In this document: piece by piece, positions 1 to 8,874 of the stretch | Position numbering within the stretch: the stretch's first letter is position 1 | Layout of the letters: each line of letters starts with the position of its first letter | Virus record (IMG/VR): IMGVR_UViG_2531839481_000001 | Location: 1 to 8,874 of that record | Direction: 5' to 3' (one strand) | Length of the DNA stretch: 8,874 nt | Source of the DNA: a virus | Lineage: Monodnaviria; Loebvirae; Hofneiviricota; Faserviricetes; Tubulavirales; Inoviridae | Translations under genes and position numbers: made by a program | The notes under the pieces: generated by a model | Told to the model about the DNA's origin: nothing | What the model saw: only the letters and a program-made list of their open reading frames with translations | Databases searched by the model: none

Positions 1-2
1 TT

Positions 3-34
3 GGTGCGCATAATGTCAACGCGTTATGTTGAAA
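3..34 (+). other. dif-like Xer recombination site (attL/attP1): exact dif XerC arm GGTGCGCATAA (3-13) + TGT, then 7 divergent bp and a degenerate XerD-like arm TTATGTTGAAA (24-34)
   Basis: E. coli dif is GGTGCGCATAA-TGTATA-TTATGTTAAAT (established). Window 3-16 matches the XerC arm plus the first 3 bp of the central region, then diverges where hybrid att sites of dif-integrating phages typically begin. Confidence 0.7.
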
Positions 35-68
35 AGGCCGCTGCGAAAATCGAATCCCGCAGCGGCCT
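35..68 (-). terminator. Perfect 11-bp stem hairpin (AGGCCGCTGCG / CGCAGCGGCCT, 12-nt loop); candidate rho-independent terminator for the - strand cargo gene and tip of the forked attP hairpin
   Basis: Arms 35-45 and 58-68 are exact reverse complements. On the - strand the stem is followed by TTTTC, and it lies just downstream of the stop of the CDS at 101-1030. Confidence 0.55.
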
Positions 69-70
69 CT

Positions 71-97
71 TTAGCATAACGTCATTGTGCGAACCAA
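71..97 (-). other. Inverted degenerate dif-like site (attP2-like): on - strand TTGGTTCGCACAA-TGACG-TTATGCTAA
   Basis: Reverse complement of 71-97 aligns with site 1: XerC-arm-like GGTTCGCACAA (85-95) is 9/11 to GGTGCGCATAA, XerD-arm-like TTATGCTAA (71-79). Positions 1-13 can pair with 85-97 at 11/13, forming an imperfect stem. Confidence 0.6.
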
Positions 98-100
98 TAG

Positions 101-1030
101 CTACTTTTTCGTATAACTCTCTTCGCATTTAGCCAAAAACAGCAGATTAGTAGCGGTTAAATGAAGGGTATAACTCGCTAAATACTCAGGAACTTTTGTT
201 ATTTCTGCCCCTTGTCCATGTCCACCTTCTTTATTTCGAATGGTTGGAATACCACTCTCAAGTAGAATTCTTATTGAAGAAAATTGATTCTGGAGGTATT
301 CAGGTACTAAATTATTTGCCAAACAACTGTTAATTAATTTTTTAGCTGTGTCAGTATCATTAAATTGCCAAGAATGTTTTTTATGTATGGCTTTCATTAG
401 ACTTTCAAAAGATTTGAGGCAATCATTTAAACATTCTTTATATCGCTGATGTCTATAATGCTCATGGGCGGATAAAAACTCATCGTTTGCTCCGTTATAA
501 CTCTTGTTCTTACCAAGAATCTGAAGCGTAGGCTTTACAACATCAGAATGAATGAATTGTGAGTCAACTTTAACCAACTCTCCTGACTCAAATTGATATC
601 CAAGACCTGCTTCTTTAAACCTGATATTAAGTTCTTCAATAGCATCATCAGGACTTTGCTTTACTGACCCTCTGAATTTCCACTCATTTGATCTTATATA
701 CCCGTCTATCAGTTTGAAACATATCTCAATGATATCCAAGCATTTTTCATGATCTCTCTCAGCTAGGAAATAGTCAAAAATTGCCCCGAAATTCGATTCA
801 GGATACTGTTTGAGAGAGAATACACCATATTCCTTACACAGCGTTTTATGAACGAGTCTGTAAAGCTTACTTGCTTCCGTTTCATAGTCACTATCTTCAC
901 CGATAGTATCTCTTACAATATGAACAACCTGAACACGAAATGCATTTGGTATATTCGTGTATTGGTAAACATCAGCTACTTCACCTCTTAATTTTTTTTG
1001 TCTTTTTGAAAATAATTCGAATATAGCCAA
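101..1030 (-). CDS. HEPN-like (Rx5H motif) abortive-infection-family candidate, AbiJ/Abi_C-like; phage cargo (moron) protein
   Basis: 309-aa ORF with no in-frame ATG until about residue 213; start is TTG at 1028-1030 preceded by GAGGA with 7-nt spacing. C-terminal RNKEGGHG fits the HEPN Rx4-6H signature. Markedly AT-rich compared with the phage backbone genes. Family assignment is from motif recognition only. Confidence 0.5.
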   Translation of the reverse strand: MAIFELFSKRQKKLRGEVADVYQYTNIPNAFRVQVVHIVRDTIGEDSDYETEASKLYRLVHKTLCKEYGVFSLKQYPESNFGAIFDYFLAERDHEKCLDIIEICFKLIDGYIRSNEWKFRGSVKQSPDDAIEELNIRFKEAGLGYQFESGELVKVDSQFIHSDVVKPTLQILGKNKSYNGANDEFLSAHEHYRHQRYKECLNDCLKSFESLMKAIHKKHSWQFNDTDTAKKLINSCLANNLVPEYLQNQFSSIRILLESGIPTIRNKEGGHGQGAEITKVPEYLASYTLHLTATNLLFLAKCEESYTKK

Positions 1031-1113
1031 TTTATAATCCTCAAAGATATGCCATTAATATGTCTGAGTTGATGAAAATCACACCGCTTTTATAGTCGTT
1101 TTCCACGGTGGAG

Positions 1114-1536
1114 TTACCAGTAATATGAGTTTCTTCTGTGCCACCAATAAAGAAGTCCGTATCCAATGATAAGAATTCCGAAAAACATCAACGACATTCC
1201 CCAGCCAGTTCCGTACCACGAAACCATATCATCGAAAACCAACCCACCCATTTCACGTACTCCGGCAGCTTCCTTAAGAATTGGTTTGAATACCGGAATC
1301 AGAAGGGCGATCGCCAGTGGAGCACCCCAGCGAACAAGACCTGTTTCCATTTTGATCCCGAAAAAGATCCCCGCACCGACAACAAGCAGCCAGACTATCA
1401 GGCCAGGCGCAGTTTCCAGTGCTGTTTGCCATTCAACATCGAAAGTTTTCATTAGCCAGGCAACAACTGCCAGACAGAAAGCAAATACGCCTACAACAAC
1501 CAGTTCAACGCCGCTTGTTTCGTTATTTCTACTCAT
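1114..1536 (-). CDS. Small integral membrane protein (about 4 predicted TM helices), unknown function; cargo partner of the HEPN-like protein
   Basis: 140-aa ORF with four long hydrophobic stretches (for example LVVVGVFAFCLAVVAWL, LIVWLLVVGAGIFFGI, GAPLAIALLIPVF, MSLMFFGILIIGYGLLYWW); ATG at 1534-1536 preceded by AAGGA with 8-nt spacing. The overlapping + strand ORFs are low-complexity P/S/T-rich antisense artefacts. Confidence 0.7.
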   Translation of the reverse strand: MSRNNETSGVELVVVGVFAFCLAVVAWLMKTFDVEWQTALETAPGLIVWLLVVGAGIFFGIKMETGLVRWGAPLAIALLIPVFKPILKEAAGVREMGGLVFDDMVSWYGTGWGMSLMFFGILIIGYGLLYWWHRRNSYYW

Positions 1537-1569
1537 CCTTTTGATCCTTTGTTGCTGTTCAAAATCCGC

Positions 1570-1607
1570 ACAATAAAGAACGTGCAGTGTAGGTAATACT
1601 GCACGTT
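1570..1607 (-). terminator. Rho-independent terminator candidate downstream of the repressor gene (10-bp perfect stem AACGTGCAGT / ACTGCACGTT, 9-nt loop, T-rich tail on - strand)
   Basis: Arms 1579-1588 and 1598-1607 are exact reverse complements; on the - strand the stem is followed by TTCTTTATTGT (1570-1578 complement). Confidence 0.55.
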
Positions 1608-1625
1608 AGTCTCATTCCTGAGACT
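1608..1625. other. Second short hairpin (7-bp stem AGTCTCA / TGAGACT, loop TTCC) immediately adjacent to the terminator
   Basis: Exact reverse-complement arms at 1608-1614 and 1619-1625. Confidence 0.4.
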
Positions 1626-1635
1626 GCTAAACCCT

Positions 1636-2082
1636 TTAATCTTCGCCTGACACTACTTTTTTCATAAACATTTTCGTACTGTAAGTATATGAACTTAATG
1701 CAGAAACTTGCCTTGCGAGAGCCAGAATATCTTGTTTATCCAGTGTTCTGATGTTCCACACAATGAAATTGTGGGCGTTAGTGGTTTCTTCATCAGTGTA
1801 ACCGTCTGCGGAAGTGATTAACTTCCTTTCAGTAGCTTCTTCTTTAACATCAATAGCATAGCCATAAGCAAGGGTGTTCAAGTCTGCACCAGTAATTTTA
1901 GCTATCTGAATTATGTCACTGAATTTAGGTTCAGTTTTGCCGGACGCTATTCTGACCAGTGTGCTAACGCTAATACCGGTTTTTTCGGCCAGTTCTTCAT
2001 AAGTCGAGTGTTCCAGAATTACCTTTTTGATACGTTCTGCTCTCTGCTTGTCCGCCATATCTTCATGCTCATTGTTGCCCAT
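1636..2082 (-). CDS. XRE/Cro-C1-type helix-turn-helix transcriptional regulator; candidate phage repressor divergent from gII
   Basis: 148-aa ORF with a classic HTH segment (EELAEKTGISVSTLVRIASGKTEPKFSDIIQIAKITG); ATG at 2080-2082 with GGAG 8 nt upstream; divergent orientation to the replication gene as in CTX-phi rstR/rstA. Confidence 0.8.
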   Translation of the reverse strand: MGNNEHEDMADKQRAERIKKVILEHSTYEELAEKTGISVSTLVRIASGKTEPKFSDIIQIAKITGADLNTLAYGYAIDVKEEATERKLITSADGYTDEETTNAHNFIVWNIRTLDKQDILALARQVSALSSYTYSTKMFMKKVVSGED

Positions 2083-2127
2083 CTACTTGGCTCCATCTTA
2101 ACAGTGGTTTTTCAATAGTTAGATTTG

Positions 2128-2184
2128 ATGCTCATTTCTGACAATTTAAACATTGCAAATGTATTGACTGTCAGAACTGAGCAT
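2128..2184. promoter_or_regulatory. 57-bp imperfect palindrome centred at 2156 between divergent repressor and gII; candidate operator and/or plus-strand origin hairpin
   Basis: Outer arms ATGCTCATTTCTGACA (2128-2143) and TGTCAGAACTGAGCAT (2169-2184) are reverse complements at 15/16; nested inner palindrome ACATT-gca-AATGT (2150-2162) shares the same centre. Confidence 0.55.
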
Positions 2185-2192
2185 ATTACATT
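2164..2192 (+). promoter_or_regulatory. Candidate sigma70 promoter for gII: -35 TTGACT (2164-2169), 17-bp spacer, -10 TACATT (2187-2192)
   Basis: 5/6 match at -35 and 4/6 at -10 with optimal spacing, about 60 bp upstream of the gII start; -35 overlaps the right arm of the palindrome. Confidence 0.4.
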
Positions 2193-2253
2193 GTGACCAT
2201 TCAATTTGCTCATAAATGACTATTGACACATATTTTGATGGGTGTGGCTACTT

Positions 2254-3306
2254 ATGATCGACTGGTTTACTGGAATCCTGCCTTGCACGCACCAACCGTT
2301 ACCGGCTGGTAGTGTCGTCAGCGTTGATGCTGATGGTGCAGTGGAGTGGGAAACAGTAAAACGGTTGACTGTTCGCGGTTCGTACGAATCTACAATGAAA
2401 GTAAGATCAGTTGGATCCGATGGCGAAGGCCGGGCAACACATCTTTATATTGATGGTAATCCGTCAAAATTTCTTCAGGGACATTCGGTTATTGGTTCCG
2501 ACGATTTGCAAGGACTGGTATTGACAGCTTACGCGAGAATACTGGCATTACTTCATATTCCCCATGACCTTCCGTCCTATCGTCAGGTAATGACAGGGCA
2601 ATATAAGGTTTCCCGTGTTGATATTAATTACATGTATTCATTGTCAACATTGGAAAATGTGCGGGCATGGCTTTATGCCGCAGAGTTTAAAGCAAAAACT
2701 CGTCATGGTCGCGCCTGTGGCAAAGGGGGAACGGTCTATTTGGGAAAAAACTCCCGTCGTTGGAGCCTGAAATTTTACTCTAAATATGATGAGCATACAT
2801 CTGGAAAAAAAGGGCACCAGATAGCAGATGAATTTGTTAACGCTGGTTTACTGGATTGGTCAAAAGATAAATTACGTATTGAATTAACATTAAGAACAAC
2901 TGAATTAATTGATTTGAATCTTACGCTTGGTAAAAACTGGAATATTGAGACGCCTAATAAAGTATTCTCTGACTATGTAGGGAGAATAGAAATGAATCAA
3001 AACACTATATTAACTGATGAAAAGATAATTAATCTCCCAAGAAAAATACAGTCTACATATTTGTTATGGAAGCAGGGCGCAAATATGAAAGAAATGCTTC
3101 CAAAGCCAACATTTTACAGGCATCGTAAAGAATTACTGTCTTTTGGTATAGATATTAATTTTTATTGTGAAGCCCCTGATTCAAATAATGTTATTCCATT
3201 AGTAAGAACACTTGAGGCTAAACCAGCCAAAATTCCATCATGGGTTTATGAGAAAGGTTTAATTTTCGATTATAACCGTATTTCACATGCCAGTAGCTGG
3301 CATTAA
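2254..3306 (+). CDS. gII: Replication initiation protein pII (rolling-circle nickase, Ff gene II family)
   Basis: Recalled M13 pII begins MID, as here (MIDWF) at ATG 2254. Shared motifs include PSKFLQGHSVIGSDDL (M13 PAKVLQGHNVFGTTDL) and NVIPLVR (M13 NVVPLVR). The ORF track extends to an upstream GTG at 2242, so the start is ambiguous by 12 nt. Confidence 0.85.
   Translation: MIDWFTGILPCTHQPLPAGSVVSVDADGAVEWETVKRLTVRGSYESTMKVRSVGSDGEGRATHLYIDGNPSKFLQGHSVIGSDDLQGLVLTAYARILALLHIPHDLPSYRQVMTGQYKVSRVDINYMYSLSTLENVRAWLYAAEFKAKTRHGRACGKGGTVYLGKNSRRWSLKFYSKYDEHTSGKKGHQIADEFVNAGLLDWSKDKLRIELTLRTTELIDLNLTLGKNWNIETPNKVFSDYVGRIEMNQNTILTDEKIINLPRKIQSTYLLWKQGANMKEMLPKPTFYRHRKELLSFGIDINFYCEAPDSNNVIPLVRTLEAKPAKIPSWVYEKGLIFDYNRISHASSWH
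2992..3306 (+). CDS. gX: pX, in-frame internal restart within gII (C-terminal 104 aa)
   Basis: In-frame ATG at 2992 gives a product starting MNQNTILTDEK, positionally and sequence-wise like M13 pX (MNIYDD...), with the same C-terminus as pII. Confidence 0.6.
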   Translation: MNQNTILTDEKIINLPRKIQSTYLLWKQGANMKEMLPKPTFYRHRKELLSFGIDINFYCEAPDSNNVIPLVRTLEAKPAKIPSWVYEKGLIFDYNRISHASSWH

Positions 3307-3317
3307 AGGAGAGTGAT

Positions 3318-3635
3318 ATGTCTAATTATGGTCTTTTCGTAAAAGGTAAGATGCTTGGTGCTCGTCAGCGTAATAAAATTAATGGGCAAGGTTATTATAA
3401 TGAAATTGGTATTGGCTTAGAGATCCCTGATGGCTTTGGTGGCACCAAGCAAGACCAGATCATTATCCGTGTATCACAAGCTCTGGTGAATTCCGGCGTA
3501 ATGAATCAGGCTAATAGCTTTATCGGAAAGTTAGTTCAGATCCCCGTTTATGTTCGTGTATGGTCAATGGAAGGTAGGGAAGGGGTAACTTATAACATTT
3601 CATCTGACGGTGGAATCACTGAAATAAAAGTTTAA
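3318..3635 (+). CDS. Gene-V-position protein, putative ssDNA-binding protein (function by synteny only)
   Basis: 105-aa ORF with strong RBS AGGAG (3307-3311) before ATG 3318, located between gII and gVII exactly where Ff gene V sits. The sequence does not obviously resemble recalled M13 pV. Confidence 0.5.
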   Translation: MSNYGLFVKGKMLGARQRNKINGQGYYNEIGIGLEIPDGFGGTKQDQIIIRVSQALVNSGVMNQANSFIGKLVQIPVYVRVWSMEGREGVTYNISSDGGITEIKV

Positions 3636-3637
3636 AT

Positions 3638-3724
3638 ATGGTTGATGTTATACAAATATTAATAGCGTCAGGCATTGTTATCTCATTTGGCCTCGGCGCA
3701 ATTACAGCGGGAGTTTTCCGTTAA
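3638..3724 (+). CDS. gVII: Minor coat protein pVII
   Basis: 28-aa hydrophobic peptide MVDVIQILIASGIVISFGLGAITAGVFR, comparable to recalled M13 pVII (…ALGIIAGGQR); start 3 nt after the gene-V stop; not in the ORF track because it is short. Confidence 0.7.
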   Translation: MVDVIQILIASGIVISFGLGAITAGVFR

Positions 3725-3819
3725 TGTATATAGCTTATTTCTTCGGGGCTTATACCTTTGGTTTTGCCCTTTTCTACGCGGTCGGTTCATTTAAATCATT
3801 TTCTGACCGCTTAATGTAA
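3724..3819 (+). CDS. gIX: Minor coat protein pIX
   Basis: 31-aa hydrophobic peptide MYIAYFFGAYTFGFALFYAVGSFKSFSDRLM; ATG overlaps the gVII stop (TAATG coupling), as in Ff. Confidence 0.65.
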   Translation: MYIAYFFGAYTFGFALFYAVGSFKSFSDRLM

Positions 3820-3838
3820 CCTTAATGGAGTTATTTAT

Positions 3839-4081
3839 ATGAAAGTTTTGTCTTTTGTTAAATCTAAAATTGCAGTAGCTTCAACAGCGCTTTTTGTTTC
3901 TGCGAGTTCTTTTGCGGCAGATGGGGCTACAGGCGGTACTGATTATGCAGGTCAGGCAATGGATGCATTACTGACTCAGGCAAATGATCTTATTGGTAAA
4001 GTATGGCCTGTCGTTGTTGCTGTGGTTGGTGCAGGCCTTGCCATTCGTATTTTTAAAAAATTCGCTTCCAAAGCAGTTTAA
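3839..4081 (+). CDS. gVIII: Major coat protein pVIII precursor
   Basis: 80-aa ORF with signal peptide ending SFA, acidic N-terminus, hydrophobic core and basic C-terminus [11 protein letters not shown]; the mature region resembles the recalled IKe-type coat (…WPVV…KKF.SKAV); GGAG RBS at 3827-3830. Confidence 0.9.
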
Positions 4082-4090
4082 AATTCACTT

Positions 4091-4114
4091 AGGGGCATTC
4101 GCTGCCCCTTTATT
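4091..4114 (+). terminator. Rho-independent terminator after gVIII (7-bp stem AGGGGCA / TGCCCCT, loop TTCGC, then TTTATT)
   Basis: Exact reverse-complement arms 4091-4097 and 4103-4109 followed by a T-rich tract; same position as the gene VIII terminator in Ff phages. Confidence 0.7.
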
Positions 4115-4127
4115 AAAGCGGGTTATT

Positions 4128-5372
4128 ATGAAAAGGAAAATATTAATTATTTCCTCTATTCTTATTTCTTCTTTTTCATATGCTGATTCATGGGAAAGCA
4201 TTACTAAATCTACTTTTCAAAGCTCTGCATATGCTGAAAGTAAGCAAATAACCAACCAAGATGGCACTAAACAAACTGTTTATTATATTGATGCAGCGAT
4301 GCAGGCTTCTGCCTGTCAGGGGGCTAAAGACAGTGCTCAGGGTGTTTTTACTCAGGTTAAACCAACTTATGAGGGAGTATGGCCTAACTCTGAATTCCGT
4401 CTTGTGTTTTCTGACGCTTGTACTTACAGCGACTCTCCAGGCCAGAAAGATAAATACTGGACTTTAACCGCTTATATTATTGGTGATATTCAACGATCCA
4501 TTCCTGATGAAAAACCTTCCGAGCCTACGCCTGAAGAGATTTGTGAAGCTAAACCCCCCGAAGAAGGTGTATTCAATAATGTCTATTCTTATGACGGCGA
4601 TCGTTATATTTATTATAACGGTTGTGAATATGAGGCCACTGGCGTCATTGTTTGCCAGAGTGATGGCACTGTTTGTGCTGCGACATGGAAGCCTACCGGA
4701 ACTGTAGCCGACCCTTCAGATAAGCCTTCTTCTCCTGCTGGCGATGGCGGTGATACTGGAGGCGGGGATACGGGTGGTGGTGATACTGGAGGAGGTGATA
4801 CAGGCGGTGGTAACCCAAGTGGCGGTTCTGGCGGTGGTAATGGCTCAAGTATTACCAAAGGAGATATTCAGTCAGCTATCGAAGGTGCTTCACCTAAAAT
4901 TGCCAGTGAGATTCATGATAAGTTAACAGAAAAAGACACCTCATCTGATGATAAAAAGTCGGCTGATGAACAGGCTAAAAATAATTTAAATCGTCTTGGT
5001 GACTCTATAAATAACCTTACTCGCGGAGCCGGACGTTTTGCTGATCCTTCTGGAGGTGATTCTCGTTATGGGAAGGGGGATTCTGAGTTAGATAGCGCTT
5101 CCACTTTAGCTGAATCTGAATTAGGAATTGCAAAGGATTCTCATGGCGCGTTATGGGAGGCTTTTTTAAATAAAGGTGCTATGTTGCCCAATTTACCCAA
5201 TGGTAATGGTTGTTCTGATTTTATCATTTTTGCAGGGGAGGTTTACCAGATTGACATTGGTTGCGATAAATTATTAACCATTAAAAATGCGCTTTCTTGG
5301 GTTTTTTATTGTTTAACATTCTGGTATGTCTTTACGTCTTTAACTTCATTGCTTCGTAAAGGGGGGGAATAA
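4128..5372 (+). CDS. gIII: Adsorption/minor coat protein pIII
   Basis: Start at ATG 4128 gives a signal peptide [19 protein letters not shown]; Gly-rich linker; the C-terminal membrane anchor (…[22 protein letters not shown]…[17 protein letters not shown]) resembles the recalled M13 pIII C-terminus. The ORF-track start at 3984 is an upstream in-frame extension through gVIII and the terminator. Confidence 0.85.
4752..4811 (+). repeat. 4 x 15-bp imperfect tandem repeat encoding (DTGGG)x4 in the pIII inter-domain linker
   Basis: Units gatactggaggcggg, gatacgggtggtggt, gatactggaggaggt, gatacaggcggtggt in the gIII frame. Confidence 0.8.
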
Positions 5373-5713
5373 TGCCTTTATTATTAGGTATCCCAGCATT
5401 GTTACGTTTTCTTATCGGTCTTGTCCCTTTATTTATTGGTTATATGGCGAGTTTTTTAGCCCGTCTTGCGACCAAAACAGGTTTAATAGCGGTTGCATTG
5501 ATCGCTTTAATTACAACAACTGTTACGCTTTTAATGCAATATCTTGCAGGGGTCATGTATAACGGTTTACCTGCTGATTTTTCACATTTAATGTCCTCTG
5601 TATTACCTGACCATTTTCAAGCCTGTATTAACGTTATTATGGTTACTCGCATCAGTGTTTTTGTTTTCGATTTAAAGAAAAAATTCCTTGATTATGCAAA
5701 CAGGGTGATTTAA
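5372..5713 (+). CDS. gVI: Minor coat protein pVI
   Basis: 113-aa hydrophobic protein beginning [14 protein letters not shown] (recalled M13 pVI begins MPVLLGIPLLLRFL); ATG overlaps the gIII stop (TAATG). Confidence 0.9.
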   Translation: MPLLLGIPALLRFLIGLVPLFIGYMASFLARLATKTGLIAVALIALITTTVTLLMQYLAGVMYNGLPADFSHLMSSVLPDHFQACINVIMVTRISVFVFDLKKKFLDYANRVI

Positions 5714-6808
5714 ATGGCTGTTCATGTAGTAACAGGTAAATTAGGCTCAGGTAAGACATTGGTTAGTGTTTCCAAAATACAGGAAAGACTTGCTAAGGGT
5801 TGTCCTGTTGCCACTAACCTAGACCTTAAATTGCATAATATGCCAATGGTAGGACGTTATGCGAAAAAAACGCGCGTTATTCGCGTTCCTGACAAGCCTT
5901 CATTAAATGATTTACTGGCTATTGGTATTGGAAATACATCTTACGATGAATCCCGCAATGGCCTTCTCGTGCTTGATGAATGTGGTACTTGGTTTAATTC
6001 CCGTTCATGGGGCGATAAAGACAGACAGCCGGTTATTGACTGGTTTTTACATGCCCGTAAATTAGGCTGGGATATTATATTTTTGATTCAGGATATTTCT
6101 ATTATGGATAAGCAAGCGCGTCTGGCGCTTGCTGAACATGTTGTGTATTGTCGCCGCTCTGATAAATTAAACATCCCTTTTATTGGCTCCATTATAAATT
6201 TAGTTTCAGGGGCGCGATTTTCCTTGCCAAAGGTACACTTTGGTATTGTTAAATATGGTGATAATGTTAATTCAATCACTGTTGATAAATGGATATATAC
6301 CGGTAAATCTCTTTACTCTGCTTACAATACCAAACAAACTTTCACAGATAACTATCCTCACGGCGCATTTTCGATTTTGCCACCATTTATCACACACGGT
6401 CAGTTTTCTGTTCACAGAGGGATTAATTATTATATGCGTCTCACTAAAATTTATTTTCGCAAATCGAACCGTCTTATATTAATGCTTTCTTTTCTGGCGC
6501 TGGGGCTTGGACTTGGTTTCTGGTTACAATCTGGTAAGAGTGCTGATGAACTCTCGGCTGTTAAATCTGCTCATGCTGAACAGGTGAGGGCGGCAATACC
6601 TGATAGTGCCGGCGATTTACCAAGACTCTCTATTAACTCTTTCTCTCAGCTTGGTTTTGATGTTTCCGTTACGTTTGTTGATGCTAAGGGTATGAAATAC
6701 CAGTATTTTGATTTAATTAAAGATGGTTATTCCGTTGATATTAAAGATGCCTGCCGAATTGTTATCAGAAAAGGCCGTTATTTACAAAACGTCACCTGCC
6801 AGGAGTAA
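5714..6808 (+). CDS. gI: Assembly ATPase pI (Zot-like, Walker A GKLGSGKT)
   Basis: 364-aa ORF with extended near-identity blocks to recalled M13 pI (…VTGKLGSGKTLVSV…LLVLDECGTWFN…QPIIDWFLHARKLGWDIIFL…); starts immediately after the gVI stop. Confidence 0.95.
   Translation: MAVHVVTGKLGSGKTLVSVSKIQERLAKGCPVATNLDLKLHNMPMVGRYAKKTRVIRVPDKPSLNDLLAIGIGNTSYDESRNGLLVLDECGTWFNSRSWGDKDRQPVIDWFLHARKLGWDIIFLIQDISIMDKQARLALAEHVVYCRRSDKLNIPFIGSIINLVSGARFSLPKVHFGIVKYGDNVNSITVDKWIYTGKSLYSAYNTKQTFTDNYPHGAFSILPPFITHGQFSVHRGINYYMRLTKIYFRKSNRLILMLSFLALGLGLGFWLQSGKSADELSAVKSAHAEQVRAAIPDSAGDLPRLSINSFSQLGFDVSVTFVDAKGMKYQYFDLIKDGYSVDIKDACRIVIRKGRYLQNVTCQE
6434..6808 (+). CDS. gXI: pXI, in-frame internal restart within gI
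   Basis: In-frame ATG at 6434 gives MRLTKIYFRKSNRL…, matching the position and sequence of recalled M13 pXI (MKLTKIYLKKFSRV…), with a TM segment following. Confidence 0.6.
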   Translation: MRLTKIYFRKSNRLILMLSFLALGLGLGFWLQSGKSADELSAVKSAHAEQVRAAIPDSAGDLPRLSINSFSQLGFDVSVTFVDAKGMKYQYFDLIKDGYSVDIKDACRIVIRKGRYLQNVTCQE

Positions 6809-6815
6809 TATTGTT

Positions 6816-8081
6816 ATGCGTTTATTTTTCATTGCTATCTTATTCACTTATTCTTTTTGCGTTTCTGCTGAGACTGTTAATCTTAATAATTCATCCGTTC
6901 GCTCATTTGTCCAGTGGTATTCATCAAAAACTGGCAAGCCCGTTATTGTTAACCCTGATGTTAAAGGAGCCGTAACGGTATTTAATGCTGATGTTAATCC
7001 CACAAATATTGATAATTTCTTTAAATCTGTACTGAATGCTAACGGATTTGTCATGCTTTCCGGCAATCCTGCGGTAGTCTCTTTGCCGTCAAAATTACCA
7101 TCACAGATGGCGTCAGACCTTGATGATGCTGATATTCGGCCTTATGACTCTTTCCCGTCTGAGCCATCTTATCAGTCAGCGCCAGTGGTGTTTACTGTCA
7201 GAAATTTTAAGCTGACAAAAGTAAGATCGTCTGATGTTCAACAACTGGTTAAAATTTATCTGGATTCTAATGGCGGTGGTAATGTTGTGGATTATCCAGG
7301 CAATAACTCCCTGATTGTTTCCGCACCTGACGAGCTGCTTCCCGTCCTTTCCGATTTCATCAATTCAGTGGATGTTGCCCGCGATCAGGTTTTGATTCAG
7401 TCGCTGATGTTTGAAACCAGTCTGTCGGATGGTGTTGATTTGTCGTTTGCAGCCGGTTCTGCATCCGGGCATAAAGTAGCAGGGGGTTTTAATACTTCAG
7501 CGTTGGGTAGCGCGTTGTCGACTGCAGGCGGCTCTTTTGGCATTTTTGATGGTAATGTTCTGGCCGTATCCCTGCGTGCGGTGCAGAGTAACTCCCGGTC
7601 TAAGGTGATTTCAACGCCTCGGATTCTTACTCAGTCTGGTCAGACAGGCTATATTTCTGTTGGTAAAAATGTACCCTTTATCACGGGTAAAGTTACGGGT
7701 GAATCTGCCGGGGTAAATAATCCGTTTCAGACCATTGAGCGTCATGATGTTGGCGTATCTCTGAAGGTGACGCCTGTTGTTATGGGGAACGGCCAGCTTG
7801 TACTTACTATTGATACCCGCGCTGATTCCATCAGCAACGATGATCAGGCATCTGATATTATTACGAACCAACGTCAGATACAGACTACAGTTCAGATTAA
7901 GGATGGCCAGACGCTCTTACTCGGTGGGCTGATTGATTCATCATCCAGCAATGCTGACCGTTCTGTACCGTTTATCAGTAAAATTCCGGTGATTGGCTGG
8001 CTTTTCAGGAGTAAAGCTGACAGTAATGAGCAACGTATTATGTATGTCCTGCTGACCGCTCATATTATTCGCGCGCTTTGA
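6816..8081 (+). CDS. gIV: Outer-membrane secretin pIV
   Basis: Start at ATG 6816 (AGGAG at 6801-6805) gives a signal peptide MRLFFIAILFTYSFCVSA. Strong similarity to recalled M13 pIV (…SVGKNVPFITGKVTGESAGVNNPFQTIER… versus M13 …SVGQNVPFITGRVTGESANVNNPFQTIER…). The ORF-track start at 6723 is an in-frame extension overlapping gI. Confidence 0.95.
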   Translation: MRLFFIAILFTYSFCVSAETVNLNNSSVRSFVQWYSSKTGKPVIVNPDVKGAVTVFNADVNPTNIDNFFKSVLNANGFVMLSGNPAVVSLPSKLPSQMASDLDDADIRPYDSFPSEPSYQSAPVVFTVRNFKLTKVRSSDVQQLVKIYLDSNGGGNVVDYPGNNSLIVSAPDELLPVLSDFINSVDVARDQVLIQSLMFETSLSDGVDLSFAAGSASGHKVAGGFNTSALGSALSTAGGSFGIFDGNVLAVSLRAVQSNSRSKVISTPRILTQSGQTGYISVGKNVPFITGKVTGESAGVNNPFQTIERHDVGVSLKVTPVVMGNGQLVLTIDTRADSISNDDQASDIITNQRQIQTTVQIKDGQTLLLGGLIDSSSSNADRSVPFISKIPVIGWLFRSKADSNEQRIMYVLLTAHIIRAL

Positions 8082-8082
8082 T

Positions 8083-8120
8083 GGGGCCGTGGCGGGTGCG
8101 TTAAGCCCCGGTACGGCCCC
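8083..8120 (+). other. GC-rich extended stem-loop immediately after the gIV stop; candidate gene-IV terminator / packaging-signal-type hairpin of the intergenic region
   Basis: GGGGCCGT (8083-8090) pairs with ACGGCCCC (8113-8120); inner CGGG/CCCG adds a further 4 bp; no U-tract follows, so classification as a pure intrinsic terminator is uncertain. Confidence 0.45.
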
Positions 8121-8230
8121 AGCAAGAGCCGGATTTTACGTCTCACCACGGAGCCTCTATATGGCCTTAAAACTGACAGGATATGAACAGAAAGACATCT
8201 TCTAGGTGATTCAATTACTTAGAGGTTTTT

Positions 8231-8479
8231 ATGTCTGTAAAAAGCAGGGTACGCGACCGCCTTCCCAGTGGTCATCTGAAGTCTTATCGACGTGTTGGTT
8301 CACACTTTACCAGTTGTTCCAGATGGTTTGATAAATCGCCGTCCTGGTATCGTAATATGATGTTGACCCGACCGGAACGCCGTGAAGTCAGAAAGCTTCT
8401 TAATCAGGTCTTGCATGGTCGTGATGCTGACGGTATAGCATTTCCTGTCAGTAACAAGCCGTTTGCATGGTGGTGGTGA
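8231..8479 (+). CDS. Hypothetical small basic Arg/Trp-rich protein (82 aa), unknown function
   Basis: ATG at 8231 preceded by AGAGG with 5-nt spacing; no similarity to Ff proteins that I recognise; lies in the region that is non-coding intergenic DNA in Ff phages. Confidence 0.35.
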   Translation: MSVKSRVRDRLPSGHLKSYRRVGSHFTSCSRWFDKSPSWYRNMMLTRPERREVRKLLNQVLHGRDADGIAFPVSNKPFAWWW

Positions 8480-8858
8480 ACTTTTTAGCCGCTAAAATTT
8501 AATACTTACGAAGTTATCGTAAACGCCGGTCAGTGACAAAACTCGTTTTGTTGCTGTCCGGGGTTGGCCAAGCCGTACAGTTTTCATTTTGAGTGTTATG
8601 GCTGATTCGGCGCGGCAGTGTTCATCTTGTCTGGAATTGGTGTCTTTAGCGCTGGGGAAGTTTTCATGTATCAGGTACAGATTTACCAACTGCAACTGGA
8701 TGAACAGGCCTGATTGGTGAGGTCAGGCCGTTCACTTACTGCTGACAGGCATTTGATTCTGATTCGTTTGGAGAAACGGATAATTTTGAATCATTGTCGA
8801 TAGTAACCAGTTGACGGCCAGTGTCAACGATTCCAGCCAGATTCCTTCTGATCCCATA

Positions 8859-8874
8859 TTGGTGCGCATAATGT
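8859..8874 (+). other. Second copy of the dif XerC arm (TTGGTGCGCATAATGT), truncated by the window edge; attR / chromosomal dif candidate
   Basis: Identical to positions 1-16; contains GGTGCGCATAA + TGT of E. coli dif. Confidence 0.7.

Follow-up and report, generated by a model that had tools for sequence, protein, structure and literature searches.

Here we describe ORF82, an 82-codon open reading frame (ORF) in the 8,874-nt stretch of DNA that makes up positions 1–8,874 of the Inoviridae record IMGVR_UViG_2531839481_000001 (hereafter the window). The window is a complete filamentous prophage integrated at dif, with an identical 16 nt (TTGGTGCGCATAATGT) at both ends, and ORF82 lies between the secretin gene gIV and the right-hand attachment (att) site. 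Our reading, to which we give a probability of roughly 0.7, is that ORF82 is a cargo gene of this prophage and a member of a broad mobile family, and that its ribosome-binding site (RBS) is masked by a messenger RNA hairpin and controlled by a short leader ORF with the motif Y-x3-D-I-F (Yx3DIF), in an attenuation mechanism of the cat-86/cmlA type. The features on which this reading is built are the following:

8150–8153, + strand: Shine-Dalgarno-like GGAG of the leader, 7 nt before the leader ATG, as read from the sequence
8161–8205, + strand: leader ORF of 14 codons and a stop codon, encoding MALKLTGYEQKDIF, with the motif Y-x3-D-I-F
8199–8225, + strand: mRNA hairpin with 5' arm 8199–8210 and 3' arm 8214–8225, minimum free energy −11.6 kcal/mol
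8231–8479, + strand: ORF82, 82 codons with an ATG start, MSVKSRVRDR...NKPFAWWW

An earlier note on this DNA had drawn attention to an 82-residue ORF ending in AWWW within a gap of about 780 bp. The ORF listing confirms the frame at 8231–8479 (+), and the gap measures 779 bp from the end of gIV at 8081 to the start of the dif-like XerC arm at 8861. The predicted product has a mass of 9.9 kDa, an isoelectric point (pI) of 11.4, 12 Arg and 5 Trp residues and a grand average of hydropathy (GRAVY) of −0.82. The length of the frame is in itself no proof of coding, because alternative-frame ORFs of 80–136 residues also lie inside real genes of the window. The same 249-nt ORF is listed in RefSeq as a hypothetical protein in relatives from Escherichia coli, and a protein search returned 33 homologues, down to 62% identity, from Salmonella, Pantoea, Brenneria, Xenorhabdus, Morganella and E. 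coli. The full-length homologues are nearly all of 82 residues (one has 83), and a minority of alleles is shortened (e.g. P0033 and P0025–P0030), as expected in decaying prophages.

At the DNA level, 17 copies from seven genera were compared, including 14 full-length loci from other species, Yersinia pestis among them; a partial Klebsiella copy was also fetched. The nucleotide identity of the orthologues ranges from 66% to 99%, so that they are not assembly duplicates of one sequence. All 17 have exactly 82 codons and not a single indel in 246 nt, in flanking DNA that is rich in indels; the pattern proposed in the earlier note as a sign of structured non-coding DNA, i.e. frameshifts or stops in relatives with conserved nucleotides, was absent from these copies. 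The variable columns are distributed as 39, 30 and 65 over the first, second and third codon positions, the pairwise dN/dS values (ratios of nonsynonymous to synonymous substitution rates) lie between 0.05 and 0.28, with dS often saturated, and the median pN/pS (the corresponding ratio of proportions of differences) is 0.23 in the frame of ORF82 versus 1.27 and 1.31 in the two other frames. Judged from its sequence evolution, ORF82 is a genuine protein-coding gene under purifying selection. A non-coding region of the Ff type (origin, packaging signal or other structured DNA), with the ORF as a chance frame kept open by conservation of the nucleotides, is scarcely credible: the position matches the Ff intergenic region, strong hairpins stand on both flanks, and chance ORFs about as long are present in the window's other frames, but substitutions are codon-patterned in one frame only, the reading frame is free of indels across seven genera, and homologues recognisable at the protein level, down to about 25% identity, occur in unrelated genomic contexts. 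With an intact ORF under purifying selection across genera, the possibility of a non-coding artefact raised in the earlier note is refuted. The note's premise of an intergenic stretch in Ff-like phages is correct for I2-2, IKe and M13 (PMC7307601), but in dif-integrating inoviruses it is a known slot for accessory genes (PMC4266046).

About 70 nt immediately 5' of the ORF82 start codon are near-invariant among the relatives, and the sequence further 5' is unrelated. This conserved stretch includes the leader, which ends in GYEQxDIF-stop in 17 of 17 orthologous loci. Its conserved codons vary only synonymously (GGA/GGG, GAA/GAG, CAG/CAA, GAC/GAT, ATC/ATT), as does the stop codon (TAG/TAA); a G-rich stretch 5' of the leader start is found in many, not all, orthologues. 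The leader is also present before homologues that share only about 35% identity, in Pseudoalteromonas (MYKTFGYFEKDIF-stop), a metagenome contig (MRKIERYWEMDIF-stop) and Endozoicomonas (VKTIEYYYTQDIFL-stop), and the same layout of leader and hairpin is present in most of 80 further metagenome loci. The pair recurs in about 67 distinct loci. Of 60 leaders, 58 have a Tyr codon (37 TAT, 21 TAC) at position −7, a site that is not part of the stem and played no role in the selection of sequences; in 41 leaders, the distance from the start codon to the end of the Phe codon is 13 or 14 codons. A stop codon directly follows DIF in 36 of the 60; in 23 there is none, and the frame continues for 20–129 codons, out of frame into the main ORF. 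Two other explanations of the leader were considered and rejected. It is not the C-terminal end of a longer upstream gene, since conservation begins at a Met 13–14 codons before the leader end, and a programmed frameshift fusing the leader to ORF82 is incompatible with the leader-to-ATG distance of 20–32 nt and the stops in between.

The 5' arm of the hairpin starts at the third position of the Ile codon, runs through the Phe codon and the stop codon of the leader and extends 5 nt further, and the 3' arm contains the Shine-Dalgarno sequence of ORF82, AGAGG (8221–8225). The good RBS reported in the earlier note is indeed there, 5 nt before the ATG, but, as part of the 3' arm of a conserved hairpin, it is masked, a circumstance that the note had missed together with the leader ORF. 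Hairpin statistics were obtained from 60 distinct sequences aligned with MAFFT, using an 11-bp helix. In this alignment 93.7% of the helix cells are paired, versus 80.2% in column shuffles (0 of 500 shuffles reached 93.7%) and 43–55% in slid-partner controls, and 99 double-sided changes were observed versus 36.6 expected. The pairs 31–49, 33–47, 34–46 and 35–45 covary, switching among UA, CG, GC and AU, and the frequency of U-G pairs identifies the hairpin as a feature of the sense-strand mRNA. A covariance model built from the alignment (R1) recognises 8173–8233 of the window with 40.3 bits (E = 1e-7), and its matches in 783 kb, searched on both strands, are located only immediately 5' of family genes. 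No Rfam family matches the leader and hairpin region. As far as aligned sequences can tell, the RBS of ORF82 pairs with the closing part of a leader that is conserved and translatable. A scan had flagged 8199–8225 and the following TTTTT as an intrinsic terminator; this candidate was rejected, since the U-tract is not kept in relatives.

In the mechanism that we propose, translation of ORF82 would be off by default, its RBS being base-paired. A ribosome at the end of the leader would melt the 5' arm and expose the Shine-Dalgarno sequence, which begins 18 nt 3' of the first stop-codon base. Such a ribosome would most likely pause or arrest with Phe in the P site, an arrest at DIF that is suggested by the conservation of the peptide. 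Pausing at DIF is favoured over mere coupling because the peptide is conserved as well as the RNA, and the conserved event is probably not termination, because 23 of the 60 leaders have no stop after DIF and what is retained is DIF at codons 11–13 together with the hairpin. The arrangement resembles the attenuators of cat-86, cmlA and ermC in that a short leader with its own Shine-Dalgarno sequence is followed by a single hairpin that covers the 3' end of the leader and masks the Shine-Dalgarno sequence of the next gene, and in that a ribosome held at the leader end could free the latter. It differs from them in that ORF82 is not a recognised resistance gene and in that a stop codon directly follows the putative pause site in 60% of the leaders. 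Of these systems, cmlA is an integron cassette that carries its own attenuator. TnaC and MsrDL arrest at a stop codon, and the 36 leaders with a stop directly after the conserved residues would likewise place any pause at termination; unlike in TnaC and MsrDL, the sense codon after DIF in 23 of 60 leaders indicates that termination is not essential. Yx3DIF matches no leader motif known to us. Ile-Phe is also present in MsrDL (MYLIFM) and ErmCL (..IFVI).

The family to which ORF82 belongs is large and widespread, and consists of small, basic proteins with an aromatic tail that are encoded on several kinds of mobile elements and are not covered by a Pfam or NCBIfam model. A profile search of 1.8 billion representative proteins recovered 139 clusters (50–146 residues), and a second profile search recovered 199 proteins. 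The members share the C-terminal module [ST]PxW[WYH]-x6-[TN]RPxRR-x12-14-GxDxD-x3-4-[FW]P-x3-4-KP[HF]x[YW][YW][WY]-COOH, with the chain almost always ending right at the aromatic triplet (YYW in 149 of 237), and the family has a median pI of 10.5. Subfamilies can be distinguished by their N-termini (MS[VI]KNKxKDR..G, MSRTY.. and MAHYKRKR..). In a group of metagenome loci with proteins of the MSTYNRALDR and MSIFNGAFDR types (L071, L073, L075, L076, L078, L082, L084, L098 and L101), a hairpin around the Shine-Dalgarno sequence (GTGCTTTAGGACCTTAACCGGAGCTAAAGC) is present without a DIF leader, which suggests that this subgroup masks its RBS in a different way.

Pfam gave no match for the ORF82 product or 84 family members even at E ≤ 5, DUF3653/HTH (helix-turn-helix) included, and scans of the window protein, 10 distant members and the 84 members against NCBIfam, PHROGs and PADLOC yielded no credible family. 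The only matches were weak, namely PHROG 12343 (function unknown) and PADLOC JetB (E = 3e-4, 7 orthologues only), the latter probably driven by composition. A sequence-profile search of the PDB gave no match, and a tblastn search against phages with ORF82 and a distant homologue returned one unverified 3.6-kb record only. The AlphaFold2 model reached a mean predicted local distance difference test score (pLDDT) of 50 with 17 sequences and of 65 with 84 sequences; the latter model has helices at residues 19–25, 38–45 and 48–61 and a tail (residues 72–82) of low confidence.

Homologues are encoded on plasmids of Salmonella, Acetobacter, Komagataeibacter, Proteus and Phaeobacter, in islands rich in toxin-antitoxin genes, beside Mob_Pre and restriction-modification genes, and on a tailed-phage-like contig. 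In Pseudoalteromonas luteoviolacea (locus L018), the homologue is surrounded by an array of at least 10 small ORFs on the same strand. The spacers of this array are 115–132 nt long, start with (A/C)TAACAA and carry GYGTTA near their 3' ends, and are attC-like; the spacer after the homologue folds with −27.1 kcal/mol. A strict, gap-free search for the attC pattern in this locus found nothing and no integrase was seen within 20 kb; the array may be an integron gene-cassette array. All-against-all clustering of the ORFs in 114 loci revealed no conserved partner gene beyond one lineage with HigBA upstream. In Endozoicomonas sp. NE40 (locus L022), the covariance model detected a second, unannotated paralogue of the family (MAVKNKAKDRDSRGKIKRKY...KPHYYYW; 11131–11428), which is 1.2 kb away from the first copy, in the midst of toxin-antitoxin genes, and is buried in a 113-residue gene call that starts too far upstream.

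In the window, leader and ORF82 occupy a slot between two further hairpins:

8082–8121, + strand: GC-rich 40-nt hairpin (inverted repeat) directly after the gIV stop codon, left edge of the cargo slot
8522–8565, + strand: imperfect, nearly invariant hairpin AACGCCGGTCAGTGACAAAAC-tcg-GTTTTGTTGCTGTCCGGGGTT, right edge of the cargo slot

The left-hand hairpin dominates the single-stranded DNA (ssDNA) fold of 8082–8230 (−25.7 kcal/mol, z = −3.1). A hairpin of different sequence is found at the equivalent position after gIV in an E. coli prophage of the UPPhi901 type (L136), and the record of phage I2-2 has a 'morphogenetic signal' annotated beside gene IV; from its position only, the hairpin is a probable packaging (morphogenetic) signal and/or terminator of gIV. 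The right-hand hairpin (ssDNA fold −18.6 kcal/mol, z = −4.6) is nearly invariant in E. coli A20, CUS-1, Brenneria and Pantoea and recurs in L136, which lacks ORF82, whichever cargo gene precedes it; it was not found downstream of the Xenorhabdus orthologues. It is an element of the phage backbone and not part of the ORF82 module, and may be a minus-strand origin, a terminator or some other backbone element.

Prophages of the UPPhi901 type in complete E. coli genomes match the window only in gIV, with about 85% nucleotide identity. The slot of L136 contains two unrelated genes encoding proteins of 102 and 77 residues (the latter rich in Cys), and the hairpin after gIV, the hairpin of the 8522–8565 type and the attP site are all kept. 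Because such prophages hold other genes in this position and yet retain a dif-like attP, ORF82 is better explained as swappable cargo than as a Xer factor or an origin element, and leader and ORF82 move as one module into the slot between the two hairpins. Like ORF82, the genes h1 and h2 of UPPhi901 occupy the gIV–dif slot of closely related prophages, and their function was reported as unknown (Shapiro and Putonti 2020, PMC7307601); they differ in that their sequences are unrelated to ORF82 and have neither leader nor hairpin, which makes ORF82 an alternative cargo. A search of the INPHARED phage DNA with 8082–8874 gave no match. The sole Rfam match in 8000–8874 was the type I antitoxin RNA OrzO-P at 8702–8798 (−), far below threshold (26.5 bits versus a gathering score of 60, E = 0.07) and probably due to chance.

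ORF82 is an orthologue of YPO2280a of YpfPhi and of its counterpart in CUS-1. It shares 80% identity over 82 of 82 residues with the proteins of both Y. pestis NCTC5923 (L004) and a CUS-1-type E. coli (L002); the name YPO2280a was assigned by gene order, not from an annotated record. Of 16 loci, 10 carry the secretin gene just upstream of the orthologue, two more being contig fragments, and 15 have a dif site on its downstream side. ORF82 is also the best-conserved protein (62–89% identity) among prophages whose genes are otherwise unrecognisable. The window shares with YpfPhi and CUS-1 the length of 82 residues, the order secretin–ORF–attR/dif, and the leader and hairpin, and differs from them in its structural genes, which are UPPhi/Lineavirus-like and not YpfPhi-like, and in the second ORF (YPO2281-like), of which only a deletion remnant is left. 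In YpfPhi, YPO2280a and YPO2281 adjoin attR at the position taken by ctxAB in CTXPhi and were described as having 'no predictable functions' (PMC4266046). The remnant in the window (about 8589–8720) has lost about 150 nt, carries a 2-nt indel and has kept its 3' end; the intact YPO2281-like protein of CUS-1 and Brenneria has 65 residues (MTHQELKVMLLKDPAFRAAYEAE...NWMNRPDW) and no match in Pfam.

Several points weigh against the proposed control of a mobile cargo gene by leader arrest. The exact DIF is missing in about 14 of about 81 loci, and the leader is missing in those members of the MAHYKR-type and MSRTY-type subfamilies that were examined. The DIF counts are partly ascertained, as the motif served as an alignment anchor. 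Conservation of I-F-stop could in part be due to complementarity with the Shine-Dalgarno sequence; this complementarity cannot explain all of the leader conservation, because the stem does not include Tyr(−7) and Asp(−3), nor G-Y-E-Q in the orthologues. No promoter-like site was found on the + strand between gIV and ORF82. A Foldseek search of the ORF82 model against the PDB gave no match, with a model of moderate pLDDT (65), and what is said below about binding by the protein comes from composition and analogy alone. Finally, plain translational coupling, in which the hairpin is opened by any ribosome that completes the leader, is likewise in agreement with the RNA data, and the conservation of the peptide is the sole argument that distinguishes arrest from it.

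Concerning the protein itself, a tentative suggestion is that the ORF82 product binds nucleic acid or ribonucleoprotein, possibly the ribosome, and has a docking tail. This suggestion is prompted by its charge, the Arg-rich helix (TRPERREVRKLL) and the invariant aromatic tail, and also by control through a leader presumed to sense the ribosome, as the products of genes under leader control frequently target the very thing that is sensed. The arginine-rich predicted helix and the conserved aromatic tail NKPFAWWW-COOH would dock into a conserved host target, and the presence of the family across phyla would imply that this target is universally conserved. The tail is modelled with low confidence and may be disordered. 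An Arg-rich helix is also a feature of lambda N and HK022 Nun, two small basic proteins of phages, and the C-terminal Trp of Nun is essential for wedging into the elongation complex; in ORF82, TRPERREVRKLL falls within a predicted helix and the C-terminus is invariably aromatic, a resemblance that gives a lead on its action and not evidence for it. More doubtful is the wider idea that Yx3DIF represents a new class of ribosome-arrest leaders that would sense a ribosome-directed signal (a natural product, the state of a translation factor, or stress) and switch on basic proteins that dock via their aromatic C-terminus into the ribosome or another universal RNA-protein machine, the whole being a self-contained module that spreads among filamentous phages, plasmids and integron arrays.

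The main alternative to binding of ribonucleoprotein, rather unlikely in our view, is a toxic or growth-arresting effector that acts in addiction, abortive infection or superinfection exclusion, with leader and hairpin as a safety catch that replaces a protein antitoxin. The two roles are compatible with each other, and an effector of this kind, being a statement about the protein, is also compatible with the regulatory mechanism proposed above. It would agree with the tight default-off translational control predicted from the sequence, and leader-coupled translation is known for hok/mok. Toxin-antitoxin genes are also found nearby, with HigBA directly upstream in about 10 metagenome loci, BrnA on Acetobacter plasmids and YafQ/DinJ on a Proteus plasmid; one homologue lies in a cassette-like array, and an AbiJ-like protein is encoded at the other end of the same prophage. 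However, the HigBA-linked loci are closely related and represent roughly one lineage, no partner gene is conserved among the 114 loci, the protein, being hydrophilic (GRAVY −0.82), does not resemble type I membrane toxins, and the only PADLOC match is the weak one to JetB in 7 orthologues.

A factor for Xer/dif recombination, be it an accessory protein like XafT of TLCPhi or an excision and directionality factor, was among the options of the earlier note and is very unlikely. ORF82 is always located on the attR/dif side of the prophage, exceeds the morphogenesis genes in conservation (62–89% amino acid identity) across the dif-integrating inoviruses of Enterobacterales, and is small and basic like many recombination directionality factors; like XafT, it is a small protein encoded by a dif-integrating filamentous element. 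However, prophages of the UPPhi901 type are integrated at dif with the same attP and lack ORF82, and the attP is predicted to fold as an ssDNA hairpin of the CTXPhi type, a class that, to our knowledge, uses XerCD without a phage factor. Moreover, homologues reside on plasmids, in the cassette-like array, in toxin-antitoxin-rich islands and on the tailed-phage-like contig, so that, unlike XafT, the family is not limited to Xer-exploiting elements, and it has no match to DUF3653/HTH or any other Pfam family.

Highly improbable is a transcriptional regulator or antirepressor that acts on the prophage's own HTH repressor or promoters in the manner of RstC of RS1, the satellite of CTXPhi. A small regulator was also among the options of the earlier note, whose interpretation is supported in part. 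RS1 carries rstC at its attR-proximal end, and ORF82 is likewise small, basic and encoded at that end, in a prophage that encodes an RstR-like HTH repressor (1636–2082). This is countered by the retention of ORF82 in loci L003 and L005 and in the Xenorhabdus loci, which have no HTH148 or gII match, by homologues in non-phage contexts and by the lack of a confidently predicted DNA-binding fold.

As a hypothetical gene of YpfPhi and CUS-1, ORF82 has been recorded before; its membership in a mobile family, its status as swappable cargo, and its control by a covarying hairpin and a Yx3DIF leader were not found in the sources searched. YpfPhi is the filamentous phage of third-pandemic Y. pestis and CUS-1 that of E. 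coli K1 and extraintestinal pathogenic E. coli, including UTI89 and NU14, and reviews name the ORFs on the attR side as an open question. Both prophages are reported to have a modest effect on in vivo fitness (PMC4266046). A large mobile family, a swappable cargo gene and a switch made of leader peptide and hairpin render the question of function testable, and the sequence signature and the covariance model can be used to find the module elsewhere. With conservation at the peptide level in more than 60 distinct loci, the 13-codon leader is a good candidate for a new arrest peptide; if the sensor-effector reading were true, such a module would be present in prophages of the plague and K1/uropathogenic E. 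coli lineages.

The prophage that carries ORF82 is a three-way mosaic, with replication and repressor genes like those of CUS-1 and YpfPhi, structural genes like those of UPPhi and Lineavirus, and a gIV-to-dif cargo of the CUS-1/YpfPhi type in place of h1/h2 of UPPhi. Its gII, gV and repressor are about 96% identical to their counterparts in CUS-1 and YpfPhi, and its gIV shares 27% identity with the CUS-1 secretin versus 71–73% with those of the I2-2, IKe and PEar phages. Mosaics of the same type have been described for the 'UPPhi viruses' (PMC7307601). The three-way combination is present in only 6–7 of 5426 complete E. coli genomes. The closest relative is the prophage of E. coli A20, whose gIII is split by an element of the IS21 family.

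The 16-nt repeat TTGGTGCGCATAATGT includes the XerC arm of dif and the first three bases of the central region, and the right end of the A20 prophage carries a full dif. When the ends of the window are joined (8859–8874 to 1–104), the + strand as ssDNA folds into a long forked hairpin (−34.3 kcal/mol), in which GGTGCGCATAATG pairs with CATTGTGCGAACC (window 91–103) and GCGTTATGTT with AGCATAACGT, and which is capped by the hairpin GGCCGCTGCG...CGCAGCGGCC. The predicted fold would present two inverted dif-like half-sites, i.e. an ssDNA attP of the CTXPhi type, as was proposed for YpfPhi (PMC4266046). The identical attP sequence is present in L136 (5016–5110).

At the attL end, the window contains a 309-residue ORF (101–1030, − strand) that matches AbiJ N-terminal domain 4 (E = 9e-27) and DUF7014 (E = 1e-77). 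By these domain matches it is an abortive-infection-like defence protein and a further cargo of the prophage. The corresponding slot encodes a TIR-domain protein in the near-identical A20 prophage and other genes in CUS-1, and because of these differing contents it looks like a hot-spot for defence genes.

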